Below the pieces are notes generated by a model. It searched no databases and was not told where the DNA came from. It worked only from the letters and a program-made list of their open reading frames with translations. A stretch of DNA of 64,000 bases, taken from the IMG/VR virus record IMGVR_UViG_3300038679_000357, positions 1-64,000 of that record; one strand, 5' to 3'. The translations under genes and the position numbers were made by a program. The DNA is from a virus. Lineage: Duplodnaviria > Caudoviricetes. Shown one piece after another: positions 28,958-36,478 of this stretch (position 1 is its first letter; every line of letters begins with the position of its first letter).

Positions 28958-29037
28958 TGGTTGCTGCAGCAGGAATCGAACCTACTTTCCGACAGGGCAT
29001 GCGACCTGCCACGATCTCCGACCGTCCTACAGCAGCC
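28958..29037 (-). ncRNA. tRNA-like RNA with 8-nt anticodon loop
   Basis: GGCAGG-TCGCATGC-CCTGTC, canonical T arm, CCA. Confidence 0.65.
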
Positions 29038-29092: not shown

Positions 29093-29187
29093 TGGTCCGT
29101 CAGGTGGGACTTGAACCCACATCAACCCCTTAGCCGGGGACATCCTTACCGTGTTAAAACACGGAATTTCCATTAGACGACTGACGA
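29093..29187 (-). ncRNA. tRNA-like RNA with hairpin inserted in the D loop
   Basis: GTCTAATGG[AAATT-CCGTGT-TTTA-ACACGG]TAAGGAT; loop CGGCTAA; T arm and CCA intact. Confidence 0.75.
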
Positions 29188-31255: not shown

Positions 31256-31330
31256 TGGAGCTTCCCGGCAGACTTGAACTGCCCTCTGGGACTTACGAAA
31301 TCCCTGCATCGCCGACAATGCTTGGGAAGC
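31256..31330 (-). tRNA. tRNA-Thr(CGT)
   Basis: GGGAT-TTCGTAA-GTCCC. Confidence 0.9.
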
Positions 31331-33130: not shown

Positions 33131-33408
33131 CCGATACTTTTTCGTTAACATAAGTTAACAAATGCATGATAGATGTTTAGTCCATCAAGGGGGTATCTCC
33201 CAAAGAAAGTTGCTGCGAACAGCGACTTTCGCATGGCTTGGTGGTCGTTTCGGTATGCCTTCTGGATACTGAGAAACAACTAGCTGACAGTGATTGTCGG
33301 AAAACCGATGCAATATGTCAACCATAATCTCTCAAATTCATAGAGCCAATCTGCATGAAATTCAAGAACATAGAAAGATAAATCAAAAAATTATTCAACA
33401 GTTAAACA
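33131..33408 (-). repeat. ~270 bp direct repeat, copy 2 (46-aa ORF 33325-33185)
   Basis: Near-identical to 29263-29530. Confidence 0.9.
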
Positions 33409-33466
33409 ACCCTTTCGGGTATCGTTCCGTTTTTACGATCGGGCGTCCATTTGCCCACACTTCGGT

Positions 33467-33542
33467 TGGAGCCCGCGCCCGGAATTGGACCGGGGACCTT
33501 CAACTTACCAAGTTGACGCTCTACCAACTGAGCTACGTGGGC
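33467..33542 (-). tRNA. tRNA-Thr(GGT)
   Basis: TCAAC-TTGGTAA-GTTGA. Confidence 0.95.
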
Positions 33543-33554
33543 ATTAAAAAGAAT

Positions 33555-33721
33555 CCGACCGACCGGCGGGAGTCGAACCCGCAAATAATGCCCGCGTTGG
33601 ACTGCAGACATTTGGACGGTTTTTGCCATGATTCCAAACTACGCAGGATCGCCCTGCGCGGTCATTCCTTGTTAACGGCTTGACCTCGACCGTGTATGCC
33701 ATTTCCACCACGGTCAGTCGG
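33555..33721 (-). ncRNA. tRNA-shaped RNA (167 nt) with four hairpins replacing the anticodon arm
   Basis: 11-bp acceptor CCGACTGACCG/CGGTCGGTCGG, Leu-type D arm, canonical T arm. Confidence 0.8.
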
Positions 33722-33734
33722 CTTCTTTGATTAT

Positions 33735-34391
33735 TTATTCCTTAGACAATTCGACGTTCCAGTACAATCTTGACAAGAACCTTTCCCACTGTTGTGGTAT
33801 TTGGATCGGAGCGATAATCTTCCGAGAGCGCCGACTGTTTCTAATTTCAGTTGAAGTTGGCACATACGGCTTTTTCATCAGCTTCATGCCAGCTTCGTCT
33901 GGGAGCATGTCCTTCTTCTTATCGTTGCAAGAAATACAGGAGAGGACGATGTTCGTCCATTCTGTACGTCCGCCACGACACCTTGGAATGACGTGATCGA
34001 GATTCAAGGTCGTTTCTTCCTCGGTTGCGCCACAGTATTGACACTTATGGCGGTCTCGAATAAAAAGATTTATCCTTGAGAATCTCGCTGGGAGTTTGCC
34101 ATTCTTGCCGTCCAACCGACTACAGGTTGAGGCATGGTTGTAATAACGAAGAGCGATAACATGCGGGACTGGCAGTTCTCCAGAAGCGAGTTTAATCACT
34201 TCCTTTTCAGAGGCAATGCAAAGATCCTTTGCAGCCTGCCAATCTCCGAGCCACTCATCGAACGACCTTGCCTGGTCGTATTCATCGATGACATCAGCTC
34301 TTTCATTATAGAGGAGTTGTACGGCTCTGTGTAGAGAAACGGAATAGACAGCCTGCCGCAAGGCGTCTAACACCAACACTGGATGTTTCAT
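33735..34391 (-). CDS. HNH endonuclease (McrA-like)
   Basis: NLFIRDRHKCQYCG, LDHVIPR, WTNIVLSCISCNDKK. Confidence 0.9.
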   Translation of the reverse strand: MKHPVLVLDALRQAVYSVSLHRAVQLLYNERADVIDEYDQARSFDEWLGDWQAAKDLCIASEKEVIKLASGELPVPHVIALRYYNHASTCSRLDGKNGKLPARFSRINLFIRDRHKCQYCGATEEETTLNLDHVIPRCRGGRTEWTNIVLSCISCNDKKKDMLPDEAGMKLMKKPYVPTSTEIRNSRRSRKIIAPIQIPQQWERFLSRLYWNVELSKE

Positions 34392-34455
34392 GGCATGTCC
34401 TTTTTCGTTGTTTCCCTACTCCGTTATTCAACGGGAGATAGGCGGTTTCTTGTTT

Positions 34456-34544
34456 TGGTGGGTGCTGAAGGAGTTGAACCTTCCGCCCGCCGCCGCACAT
34501 ATTAAAGGCGCGGGTTTTACAGACCCGCGTGTGGAACAGCACCC
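34456..34544 (-). tRNA. tRNA-Tyr(GTA) apparently lacking a D arm
   Basis: GGGTGCT/AGCACCC, GCGGGT-CTGTAAA-ACCCGC, long variable region, CCA. Confidence 0.75.
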
Positions 34545-35020
34545 ATTTTTCTTCCAGGGCAATAAGTTTCAGTCTGAGAGTGACAATTAGGGCATAAGAT
34601 GCGTAAATTTTGCATTCTATTATCGCGTGAATCTCCATTTATATGGTCTAAATGCAAAACCAACTTTTTTCCCCTCCACATTGGTAGTAACCCACATTCG
34701 CTACACTCATTCTTCAGAATGTCCAATTTGAATAGCTTGTGCTTCAAATTATGAGACGTCCATCCGGGACCATCCTTTACAAGAACATCTTTTATGAATT
34801 GTTCCTTGGAACGACAACCCTTCAGGGCACTAGCTCGATTGCGCTCTGATATGTCGAAATGGGAAGTGTTTATTCCATAAGATAGAACCTTTTTGCGAAA
34901 AATCTCATAATTACTCCCTCTCGGAATAAGACCCATGGATCGCATCGCTTCAGATATTGAATTGCTTTTAGAAATTGCTTCTGCAATTTCTTCCCTACTG
35001 TATGGAGCTTTTCTTGGCAT
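34517..35020 (-). CDS. HNH homing endonuclease
   Basis: CSEC..LDHINGDSRDNRMQNLRILCPNCHSQT; stop inside the tRNA-Tyr anticodon loop. Confidence 0.85.
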   Translation of the reverse strand: MPRKAPYSREEIAEAISKSNSISEAMRSMGLIPRGSNYEIFRKKVLSYGINTSHFDISERNRASALKGCRSKEQFIKDVLVKDGPGWTSHNLKHKLFKLDILKNECSECGLLPMWRGKKLVLHLDHINGDSRDNRMQNLRILCPNCHSQTETYCPGRKMGAVPHAGL

Positions 35021-35034
35021 AAACACCTTCCTTC

Positions 35035-35111
35035 TGGTATCCCGAGTGGGACTCGAACCCACACCATTGGGAGCTTAAATCCCATGCATCTGCCAATTGT
35101 GCTACCGGGAC
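35035..35111 (-). tRNA. tRNA-Leu(TAA) without long variable arm
   Basis: TGGGA-TTTAAGC-TCCCA, 5-nt variable loop. Confidence 0.85.
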
Positions 35112-35122
35112 GATCTTGATGC

Positions 35123-35198
35123 TGGAGCCAGCGATCGGATTTGAACCGATGACATCCTGCTTACAAGGCAGGTGCTCTACCAACTGAGCTACGCAGGC
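35123..35198 (-). tRNA. tRNA-Thr(TGT)
   Basis: CCTGC-CTTGTAA-GCAGG. Confidence 0.95.
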
Positions 35199-35234
35199 AA
35201 TCTAAGATACCAATTAAATCACGAAATTCAATAT

Positions 35235-35311
35235 TGGTACCGCAGGGGGGACTCGAACCCCCAACATTCAGATTTTGAATCTGACGCGACTGCCAATTGC
35301 ACCACTGCGGC
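35235..35311 (-). tRNA. tRNA-Leu(CAA) without long variable arm
   Basis: TCAGA-TTCAAAA-TCTGA, 5-nt variable loop. Confidence 0.85.
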
Positions 35312-35317
35312 ATGAAA

Positions 35318-35394
35318 TGGTCGGTCCGGCGAGAATTGAACTCGCGACCTTCTGCTCCCAAGGCAGACGCGCTACCAAACTGCGCTACGAACCG
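35318..35394 (-). tRNA. tRNA-Pro(TGG)
   Basis: TCTGC-CTTGGGA-GCAGA. Confidence 0.95.
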
Positions 35395-35446
35395 ACTGAA
35401 AAGAAACGCTGGACGCTCTAACATTTTCTGAGCTATCTCCTGGCGC

Positions 35447-35522
35447 TGGTGGGCGGTAAAGGACTTGAACCTTTATTTTGGCGTTCGTAGCGCCATGTCC
35501 TATCCTGTTGAACGAACTGCCC
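35447..35522 (-). tRNA. tRNA-Arg(ACG)
   Basis: TGGCG-CTACGAA-CGCCA. Confidence 0.9.
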
Positions 35523-36159
35523 ATGTTGATTTTACCTTGTCAACCCATCCTTGCAATCTATTACGAAGGGTCGTATCGTTGACGGAAACAGAGACAATGC
35601 CATACTGCGATCTCCTATTGGATACTTGCTTTTTTTCTTGGAAATGTATGTCATCTTGATGAACTCCAAGGGCATCAGCCCAAAAATCTCTCAGCTTTGG
35701 CAGCTCGCTCTTCTCGCACCACAATCTAATTTTCACCCTTCTGACCGAAAACAATTTAAGATGTTCGAAGCACAATAAAATAATCAAAGGATCTGTATTG
35801 GCTACCATTACAGAGTTTTTCGATCTCCGATGTCCCTCTCCAATATAAATACACACAAAGTCTCTCACAAGGAGATTTTTCTCCATTAACACATCGGCTT
35901 CATCCCACCCTGCTTTGTACGCTGCCTCTCTCTGCAAACGCCACTTCCACTGAGTGTCTCTCCCCTTGGTCTTCTCACCATTTTTTCTCCTAGCCCTCTG
36001 CTGAATATTTTCGCCATCAATTTCAGGGACGTCCATATCTTTTATCCAGCTATAAACAGTTGCCTTAGATGCCCCGAATGTTTGTACAAGAGTAGGGAGA
36101 GACGCTCCTTGACTTCTCATTCTTCTCACTTCTTGGATAATCTCATTTCCGTATTTCAT
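35500..36159 (-). CDS. HTH plus LAGLIDADG-like putative endonuclease
   Basis: N-terminal HTH (ASKATVYSWI), CIYIGEG..NTDP; stop inside the tRNA-Arg D loop. Confidence 0.6.
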   Translation of the reverse strand: MKYGNEIIQEVRRMRSQGASLPTLVQTFGASKATVYSWIKDMDVPEIDGENIQQRARRKNGEKTKGRDTQWKWRLQREAAYKAGWDEADVLMEKNLLVRDFVCIYIGEGHRRSKNSVMVANTDPLIILLCFEHLKLFSVRRVKIRLWCEKSELPKLRDFWADALGVHQDDIHFQEKKQVSNRRSQYGIVSVSVNDTTLRNRLQGWVDKVKSTWAVRSTG

Positions 36160-36255
36160 TTGAACCTCTGAGTATTTGATTCACACGACAAATGTCGCAG
36201 GTTTACTCAGACATGATTCTGGGTGAAATATCATTTTCCCTCTTTTGAAGACTGA

Positions 36256-36332
36256 TGGTCAACATGACTGGATTTGAACCAGCGACTTCTTGCTCCCAAG
36301 GCAAGCGCTCTACCAAGCTGAGCCACATGTTG
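36256..36332 (-). tRNA. tRNA-Pro(TGG), second copy
   Basis: CTTGC-CTTGGGA-GCAAG. Confidence 0.95.
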
Positions 36333-36335
36333 ACA

Positions 36336-36478
36336 ACGGCGGACGCCGATCGTCCGCCGGTTATCAATATCGAACACAGCACTCGTTGGCGGAGAGTGCT
36401 GTAGACTACTGCAAGTTGTCAATGAACCCGCTCGATTTCACTAGGATCTCCTATCTTCGTGAGGGTCGGCAACCCTGA
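36336..36478 (-). ncRNA. structured segment between attenuator 3 and the first tRNA
   Basis: GGCGGACG/CGTCCGCC, ACAGCACTC/GAGTGCTGT, AGGGT/ACCCT. Confidence 0.45.

Follow-up and report, generated by a model that had tools for sequence, protein, structure and literature searches.

To our knowledge, textbooks and tRNA finders take all elongator tRNAs of bacteria and phages to be cloverleaves. The D-armless tRNAs of metazoan mitochondria, for example tRNA-Ser(GCU), have the D arm reduced to a short unpaired loop, with a shrunken core and adapted mitochondrial factors. In bacteria and phages, tRNA-Ser, tRNA-His and the allo-tRNAs have been described with an 8/4 branch, and these are cloverleaves which carry a long-stemmed D hairpin (Mukai et al. 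2017, PMC5389517); in that study, tRNA-Tyr appears in the reference list only.

Two further fields bear on tRNA-Tyr in particular. The long tRNA arrays of bacteria (L-arrays, tRNA array units) are accessory, horizontally moved and redundant with the housekeeping tRNAs (PMC4758250; PMC8421152). In the Anabaena array, 23 of 26 tRNAs are charged in vivo, and the array is induced under translational stress (Santamaria-Gomez et al. 2021, PMC8421152). A survey of such arrays places Tyr among their rarest isotypes and leaves an odd form unmentioned (Tran et al. 2015, PMC4758250), and a large screen for structured RNAs of viruses names tRNA-like candidates in a general way only (PMC10690425). The second field is phage defence: retron-Eco7 and Septu carry PtuAB nucleases, which cleave the variable arm of tRNA-Tyr and so halt the phage. 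Phages can counteract this cleavage with tRNA-Tyr genes of their own, and the tRNA-Tyr of phage T5 is reportedly resistant by means of a distinctive variable loop (PMC11555353, PMC13096335). A full-text literature search found no published description of a tRNA-Tyr with a pseudoknot between D and variable arms, and the widespread non-cloverleaf tRNA-Tyr class presented here is apparently undescribed in print.

The tRNA-Tyr locus of the window

The window, that is, the whole stretch of DNA analyzed, comprises 64,000 nt of a virus of the Caudoviricetes (positions 1 to 64,000 of the IMG/VR record IMGVR_UViG_3300038679_000357). It contains on its minus strand a tRNA-Tyr(GUA)-like gene of 86 nt (34459-34544), followed by an encoded CCA (34456-34458), with the following parts.

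34456-34544 (-): whole gene, an 86-nt rewired, pseudoknotted tRNA-Tyr(GUA) with an 8/4 branch (34459-34544) plus CCA; full-length match to the covariance model R1 and sole Tyr candidate
34537-34544 (-): 5' strand of the acceptor, 8 nt (GGGUGCUG); its eighth base, G, pairs with C at 34467
34535-34536 (-): UU linker from the acceptor to long-range strand a; the family consensus is TT, with T in column 10 of 90% or more of the sequences
34529-34534 (-): strand a of the long-range D helix, CCACAC, directly abutting the anticodon stem; columns 11-16 pair with 53-59
34510-34528 (-): anticodon arm, with a 6-bp stem GCGGGU/ACCCGC and the loop CUGUAAA (GUA at 34518-34520); in the family this helix is 98% paired, with covariation
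34507-34509 (-): 5' strand of the variable stem, GCC, pairing with GGC at 34485-34487
34499-34506 (-): A/U-rich linker in the variable loop (UUUAAUAU); an A/T-rich stretch of 7-10 nt is kept across the family
34493-34498 (-): strand b of the long-range D helix, GUGCGG, pairing with 34529-34534 with one A.C mismatch (cmsearch alignment)
34490-34492 (-): CGG, the YGG motif of the family; candidate counterpart of the D-loop G18-G19, with putative docking to the T loop
34485-34487 (-): 3' strand of the variable stem, GGC, which closes the stem across strand b and gives the pseudoknot
34468-34482 (-): T arm in the 8/4 reading, with a 4-bp stem AAGG/CCUU and the loop UUCAACU; the 4-bp T stem is paired in 98% of the bacterial and 85% of the phage set
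34459-34467 (-): 3' strand of the acceptor (CAGCACCC) and discriminator A73, an A in every sequence of the phage set

Read on the minus strand in classical terms, 34456-34544 shows a 7-bp acceptor (GGGUGCU/AGCACCC), a discriminator A and the encoded CCA, together with a T arm that can be drawn as GAAGG/UUCAACU/CCUUC and an anticodon hairpin, drawable with 7 bp, whose loop CUGUAAA presents the anticodon GUA. The 7-bp acceptor strand is followed by the anticodon hairpin after 8 nt only (GUUCCACA); about 18 nt are needed for a D hairpin, which is therefore impossible in 34459-34544. The T stem follows about 25 nt after the anticodon hairpin. The preliminary description of this DNA had recognized the window's only tRNA-Tyr, without a D arm and with about 8 nt linking acceptor and anticodon stem, and the 8-nt spacer, together with the lack of any other Tyr call by ARAGORN in the window or in the complete record, agrees with it on both counts. 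It had further proposed that a variable region of about 26 nt could pair back (CACA/TGTG), which also holds: the region measures about 25 nt and the pairing is present, the register found in the family being slightly shifted and longer.

ARAGORN reports 46 tRNAs in the window and the identical 46 in the whole record, a single contig of 255,142 bp, all of them within the first 36.4 kb. They represent 19 amino acids and a CUA suppressor, Tyr being absent, and no tRNA-Tyr is called in either the window or the full record, 34459-34544 remaining uncalled. As Tyr is the missing slot in the phage tRNA set, 34459-34544 may be argued to be the Tyr gene of the phage. Rfam RF00005 gives no match to 34459-34544 at gathering (cut-off of 29 bits), and the gene falls outside the canonical RF00005 cloverleaf, which has a D stem-loop spanning positions 10 to 25 and scores at least 29 bits. 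The sole Rfam match at the locus is to tRNA-Sec (RF01852), in which the D arm is aligned as a deletion; a tRNA-Sec identity, which calls for an 8/5 or 9/4 branch and a long D stem, was rejected, since the score of 31.8 bits falls below the cut-off of 47 and the anticodon is GUA and not UCA. The minimum free energy fold of the single sequence breaks the acceptor stem (z = -1.85) and is uninformative.

Direct sequence comparison yielded no relatives. The exact 19-nt anticodon arm had no match in the viral contigs searched, and megablast of 33400-36400, as well as blastn of the 89-nt gene and of a relative (L102), returned unrelated tRNA-Thr matches or none from 50,697 phage records. A host flank, sought by GC content in this record, which is labelled a provirus, was not visible, GC being flat at about 42%.

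Phage relatives and covariation

Relatives were collected from IMG/VR by a pattern scan which fixed the Tyr anticodon loop, a T loop and an unusually wide spacing of the two, and which placed no constraint on D pairing. The loop motif CUGUAAA belonged to the search pattern; A73 did not, and the pairings of the D helix, of 8-65 and of the variable stem were not imposed. The scan yielded 119 loci, 63 with a good acceptor stem and 40, the window included, with exactly 15 nt from the acceptor strand to the anticodon loop. These 40 phage loci comprise 38 distinct sequences, 37 besides that of the window, and the covariance model R1, in which the long-range helix is included, was trained on 37 non-window sequences.

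One layout is common to the 37 other distinct phage sequences and to 84 distinct bacterial ones: an 8-bp acceptor, a 4-bp T stem, a 6-bp helix that joins the segment just 5' of the anticodon arm to a segment of the variable loop, and a crossing 3-bp variable stem. All of these helices covary. In the MAFFT alignment A1, 97% of the cells of the long-range helix (columns 11-16/53-59) are paired, and changes on both sides occur at five of the six pairs, one long-range pair appearing as UA (17), CG (11), AU (3), GU (3) and GC (2). Shifting the partner by one column lowers overall pairing to about 50%, and the support for the helix in A1 is on a par with that for the acceptor and anticodon stems. 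In the window, CCACAC (34534-34529) and GUGCGG (34498-34493) form five Watson-Crick pairs, interrupted in mid-helix by one A.C; the 4-bp pairing CACA/UGUG is a slipped version of this interaction, and such a register is possible.

The acceptor and T stems are divided in an unusual manner as well. Pair 8-65 is formed in all 38 phage sequences, in five pair types (GC 24, AU 5, UA 4, UG 4, CG 1), and in 88 of 88 bacterial sequences in alignment A3, and the classical pair 49-65 is found in just 8 of the 38. Since 8-65 is always formed and 49-65 seldom, the branch consists of 8 + 4 bp and not 7 + 5, and the classical 7/5 division was rejected, the bacterial counts (84 of 84 for 8-65, 13 of 84 for 49-65) being of the same kind. 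The corresponding branch of the window gene is made up of G8-C78 (tRNA numbering) and AAGG/CCUU.

The variable stem, in which the three bases after the anticodon stem pair with three bases downstream of strand b, is 93% paired and covaries. Strand b lies about 30 nt downstream of strand a, inside the loop of this 3-bp stem, and because the stem encloses strand b and not strand a, the two helices form a pseudoknot. In the YGG motif, the second G is invariant (38 of 38 phage sequences), and TGG or CGG follows strand b in 65 of the 84 bacterial sequences. The invariant bases of the family are C11, the G closing the long-range helix, the G in YGG, G36 and A73.

None of the 39 non-window phage copies is called by ARAGORN. 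Most of them lie inside tRNA clusters, and 38 of the 39 loci are without another tRNA-Tyr in the fetched flanks; at two loci, L118 (37 tRNAs) and L031 (36 tRNAs), Tyr is the sole missing amino acid. At L115 (5255-5427, +), the rewired tRNA-Tyr is followed after 5 nt by an ARAGORN-callable tRNA-Tyr, which makes this the only phage locus with both forms adjoining. A distant variant of the rewired tRNA-Tyr, 95 nt long and scoring 27.2 bits with R1, is present in Bacteroides phage crAss001 (MH675552, 4141-4235, +), where it occupies an unannotated gap between tRNA-Lys and tRNA-Phe in a cluster whose 23 annotated tRNAs include no tRNA-Tyr.

Bacterial copies in tRNA arrays

A stricter pattern, applied to one genome per prokaryote species, returned 91 loci, of which 90 were judged true members by eye, 89 passed the acceptor filter and 84 are distinct. 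In this distinct set, the pairs 8-65 and 50-64 are both formed in 84 of 84 sequences, the long-range helix has six of six pairs in 71 sequences and five of six in 13, and the variable stem has three of three in 83. The middle pair of the variable stem, which lies outside the model, occurs in alignment A3 as UA (38), CG (29), GC (11) and UG (7).

The bacterial carriers are mostly chromosomes and MAGs of Planctomycetota (Schlesneria, Lacipirellula, Thalassoglobus, Neorhodopirellula, Fuerstiella, Pirellulaceae, Phycisphaerae and Isosphaeraceae), with a few Leptospirales and others; isolates with an array include Schlesneria sp. T3-172, Lacipirellula limnantheis I41, Thalassoglobus neptunius KOR42 and Neorhodopirellula pilleata Pla100. 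The rewired genes are members of long tRNA arrays, the largest of which has 39 genes. In all 22 of the 22 arrays with 24 or more called tRNAs, the rewired gene is the only one for Tyr, and in five of them Tyr is the only amino acid that the called tRNAs leave out. The same genomes carry a canonical, ARAGORN-callable tRNA-Tyr elsewhere, beside tRNA-Thr, and the notion that the rewired form is the sole tRNA-Tyr of the Planctomycetota was rejected on this ground. Because the canonical gene is present elsewhere, the rewired form represents Tyr in the accessory arrays and is not the housekeeping gene. The bacterial copies thus resemble the published L-arrays in standing in arrays of 20-39 tRNAs; unlike here, the L-array surveys counted only tRNAs called by finders, and the rewired tRNA-Tyr is not described in them.

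The Planctomycetota arrays (L149, L185, L193, L122, L131 and others within L120-L210) pack 24-39 genes into a few kb and have no encoded CCA. A Flavobacterium MAG contig (L184:1219-1304, +) holds a gene of the rewired layout which scores 50.8 bits with R1 and whose loop, CUGCAAA, presents the anticodon GCA for Cys. Among the amino acids missing from the Planctomycetota arrays, Cys ranks second in frequency (10 of 22). A rewired class of tRNA-Cys may exist.

Comparison with described tRNAs

The comparator for the rewired form is the canonical class II tRNA-Tyr(GUA) (RF00005), such as the housekeeping genes beside tRNA-Thr in Schlesneria sp. T3-172 and Lacipirellula limnantheis I41. The two have in common the CUGUAAA loop, A73, G1-C72, a variable stem, a standard T loop, a branch of 12 bp and the same slot in the tRNA set. 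They differ in that the rewired form has no D hairpin and builds its D helix with a strand of the variable loop, resulting in a pseudoknot, that its branch is 8/4 and not 7/5, that position 8 is paired and not a free U8, and that it scores below the Rfam cut-off and is silent in ARAGORN.

With the 8/4 tRNAs described in PMC5389517, the rewired tRNA-Tyr shares the 8 + 4 = 12 bp of its branch, its occurrence in the tRNA clusters of phages and in polycistrons that hold irregular tRNAs, and its escape from standard searches; in contrast to them, with their Ser, His or assorted anticodons, it lacks the long D hairpin, and it has Tyr identity (GUA) and a pseudoknot between D and variable arms. The preliminary description had looked instead to the D-armless tRNAs of animal mitochondria, which likewise have no D hairpin and a short connector between acceptor and anticodon. 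That comparison is not apt, as a covarying long-range helix replaces the D arm in 34459-34544: the connector forms one side of this 6-bp helix, the gene, at 86 nt, is longer than a normal tRNA, and the machinery in which it would operate is the ordinary bacterial one.

Proposed architecture and role

In the cloverleaf, the D stem, the pair 26-44 and the first tertiary layers hold the rod position above the anticodon stem. In the rewired form, strand a passes into the anticodon stem without a break, and the 6-bp long-range helix should therefore stack on the 6-bp anticodon stem as a 12-bp rod, in the manner of the D stem of a normal tRNA. Judged by polarity, strand a would take the geometric place of canonical positions 22-25, and strand b with YGG that of positions 10-13 and of the D loop with its G18-G19, as though one half of the D arm, together with the loop, had been relocated behind the anticodon arm. 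The YGG motif may substitute for the D-loop G18-G19 at the elbow, and the UU linker may play the role of positions 8-9. With the 12-bp acceptor/T branch presumably retained for EF-Tu, the L shape would still be formed and would be accepted by RNase P, TyrRS, EF-Tu and the ribosome, the candidate recognition elements for TyrRS being A73, G1-C72 and G34-U35, all of which are present in the window gene.

The reading favored here, with a probability of roughly 0.75, is that 34459-34544 is an intact member of a conserved class of non-cloverleaf tRNA-Tyr and the only tRNA-Tyr of the phage, and that it is charged by the host TyrRS; charging and decoding are predictions. Tyr codons constitute 3.8% of the codons in the long open reading frames of the phage. 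No phage-encoded TyrRS was found in the genome, and charging must therefore rely on a host enzyme which accepts the rewired shape.

A different role has to be considered, namely that of a non-decoding mimic or decoy, which would soak up or block a host factor, for example a defence nuclease that cuts tRNA-Tyr, or would act by some other route outside translation. The carrier bacteria lend this some plausibility: a canonical tRNA-Tyr coexists with the rewired form in them, so that the latter is non-essential there and could act outside translation. The phage array, too, holds a tRNA-shaped RNA without a usable anticodon (28958-29034), and an overexpressed phage tRNA-Tyr partly shields the host tRNA-Tyr from Septu (PMC13096335). 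Yet the features required for decoding are invariant (the 7-nt loop CUGUAAA, the 12-bp acceptor/T branch, A73 and the CCA end), and the gene occupies the one amino-acid slot left vacant in phage and bacterial sets that are complete in all else, a pattern for which a decoy has no need. A decoy is accordingly regarded as unlikely, and a decoding tRNA-Tyr remains the preferred interpretation.

Integrity of the window copy and the upstream HNH gene

The model R1, to whose training the window did not contribute, matches 34459-34544 with 88.9 bits (E 3e-26) over positions 1-87 of 87 and with a single non-standard pair, the highest score of any ordinary tRNA in the window being 18.8 bits. Set against 92 matches in bacterial loci outside the training, the window copy ranks 14 of 93. 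All tested characters of the class are present in it: the full-length R1 match, the 8/4 branch, the long-range helix, the crossing variable stem with YGG, and CUGUAAA with A73. In nucleotide identity, 34459-34544 is 80-84% identical to array copies of the Planctomycetota type (L123, L203, L174, L168), above any phage copy from IMG/VR, which is a weak hint, taken from sequence similarity, that a planctomycete may be the host of the phage or the source of its tRNA.

Two HNH genes adjoin the tRNA. The one downstream, at 33735-34391 (HNH_5, 58 bits), lies just beyond its 3' end, and the one upstream overlaps it.

34517-35020 (-): free-standing HNH endonuclease open reading frame of 167 aa; Pfam HNH at 21.4 bits (weak)

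The upstream frame starts with ATG at 35020, preceded by GAAGGAAGG and lying 14 nt after tRNA-Leu(UAA). It had been noted at the outset that this frame reads into the tRNA and stops at the TAA of the anticodon loop, and this is correct: the overlap amounts to 28 nt and the stop UAA is U35-A36-A37 (34519-34517). The last ten codons of the HNH mRNA, stop included, lie inside the tRNA (34517-34544, -). A cut by RNase P at G1 would strip the HNH stop, so that tRNA maturation and HNH translation would be mutually exclusive for a given transcript.

One could suppose that the family is functional and that the window copy is decaying toward a pseudogene, as signs of which the A.C mismatch and the entering HNH frame might be taken. 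The window is indeed one of only two among 38 sequences that are unpaired, or non-standard, at this column pair, and HNH genes stand on both sides of the tRNA. Against decay, the score of 88.9 bits lies in the top 15% of independent members, every family-invariant base is kept, and there is no further Tyr tRNA in the phage genome. Moreover, relatives such as L068 and L182 have CCACAC/GUGUGG, from which the window helix is separated by a single transition, and single mismatches are common in functional tRNAs. Decay is hence held to be very unlikely, and an intact tRNA-Tyr remains the preferred state of the window copy.

The preliminary description had also suggested that the HNH insertion remodelled the tRNA, and proposed a comparison with HNH-free relatives, in which a normal D arm would point to damage. 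The family members without the HNH, in other phages and in bacteria, have no normal D arm either, which argues for design and not damage; a homologue of the upstream HNH is found within the fetched flanks of 2 of the 39 phage loci. Homologues of the HNH identified by tblastn align over residues 6-160 only, and its tail overlapping the tRNA is therefore not conserved. A search for split or old tRNA halves around a cassette of HNH plus tRNA was equally fruitless, as the 14 nt upstream leave no room and nothing tRNA-like lies downstream. That a normal tRNA-Tyr lost its D arm through insertion of this homing endonuclease gene is scarcely credible, for although the frame extends over 28 nt at the 5' end of the gene, up to its anticodon loop, and the disruption of phage tRNA genes by homing endonucleases has known precedents (SegB; PMC13096335), the identical architecture recurs in 121 other distinct sequences, nearly all without an HNH homologue, the window copy ranks high among its relatives, orphan tRNA halves are absent and the overlapping tail is unconserved. 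The HNH is rejected as the cause of the architecture and is best viewed as an unrelated selfish neighbour whose frame happens to enter the tRNA.

Other irregular tRNAs in the window

A second tRNA-like RNA of 77 nt at 28958-29034 (-) is missed by ARAGORN and, at gathering, by Rfam. Its acceptor is 8 bp long; a D-like stem of 6 bp closes a 3-nt loop, a further stem of 6 bp bears a loop of 8 nt (UCGCAUGC), the T stem is short, and the RNA ends in ACCA. This layout resembles that of the allo-tRNAs. Three ARAGORN calls have no Rfam tRNA match at gathering, namely 2231-2305, 29093-29187 and 31256-31330 (-), called as Trp-CCA, Val-AAC (95 nt) and Thr-CGU, respectively; these may be further irregular tRNAs or false calls.

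Implications

Since the variable arm of tRNA-Tyr is cut by anti-phage nucleases, the rewired class may link the architecture of a tRNA to phage defence. One tentative explanation of the rewiring is that it serves anti-defence: the variable loop, folded into the D helix, would no longer offer a target of the PtuAB type, and phage sets and mobile arrays would hold a nuclease-proof spare tRNA-Tyr. The resemblance to the phage tRNA-Tyr genes that counter PtuAB lies in a tRNA-Tyr gene carried by a phage; those tRNAs, however, are cloverleaves, and resistance of the rewired variable arm is only speculative. If this possible explanation were true, translation would be kept running after the host cloverleaf tRNA-Tyr has been destroyed, and the rewired form would be the first elongator tRNA of bacteria or phages that works without being a cloverleaf.

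If the rewired tRNA-Tyr is charged and decodes, the range of shapes tolerated by RNase P, TyrRS, EF-Tu and the ribosome would be wider, and the apparent gap, restricted to Tyr, in many large phage tRNA sets and bacterial arrays would be explained. It would also follow that annotation pipelines undercount tRNAs systematically, and the class would offer a natural scaffold for the engineering of orthogonal tRNAs. Cultured carriers are at hand in crAss001, grown on Bacteroides intestinalis, and in Schlesneria sp. T3-172 and Lacipirellula limnantheis I41, and the class thus provides a concrete and testable link between the architecture of tRNAs and the arms race of phages and their hosts' defences.
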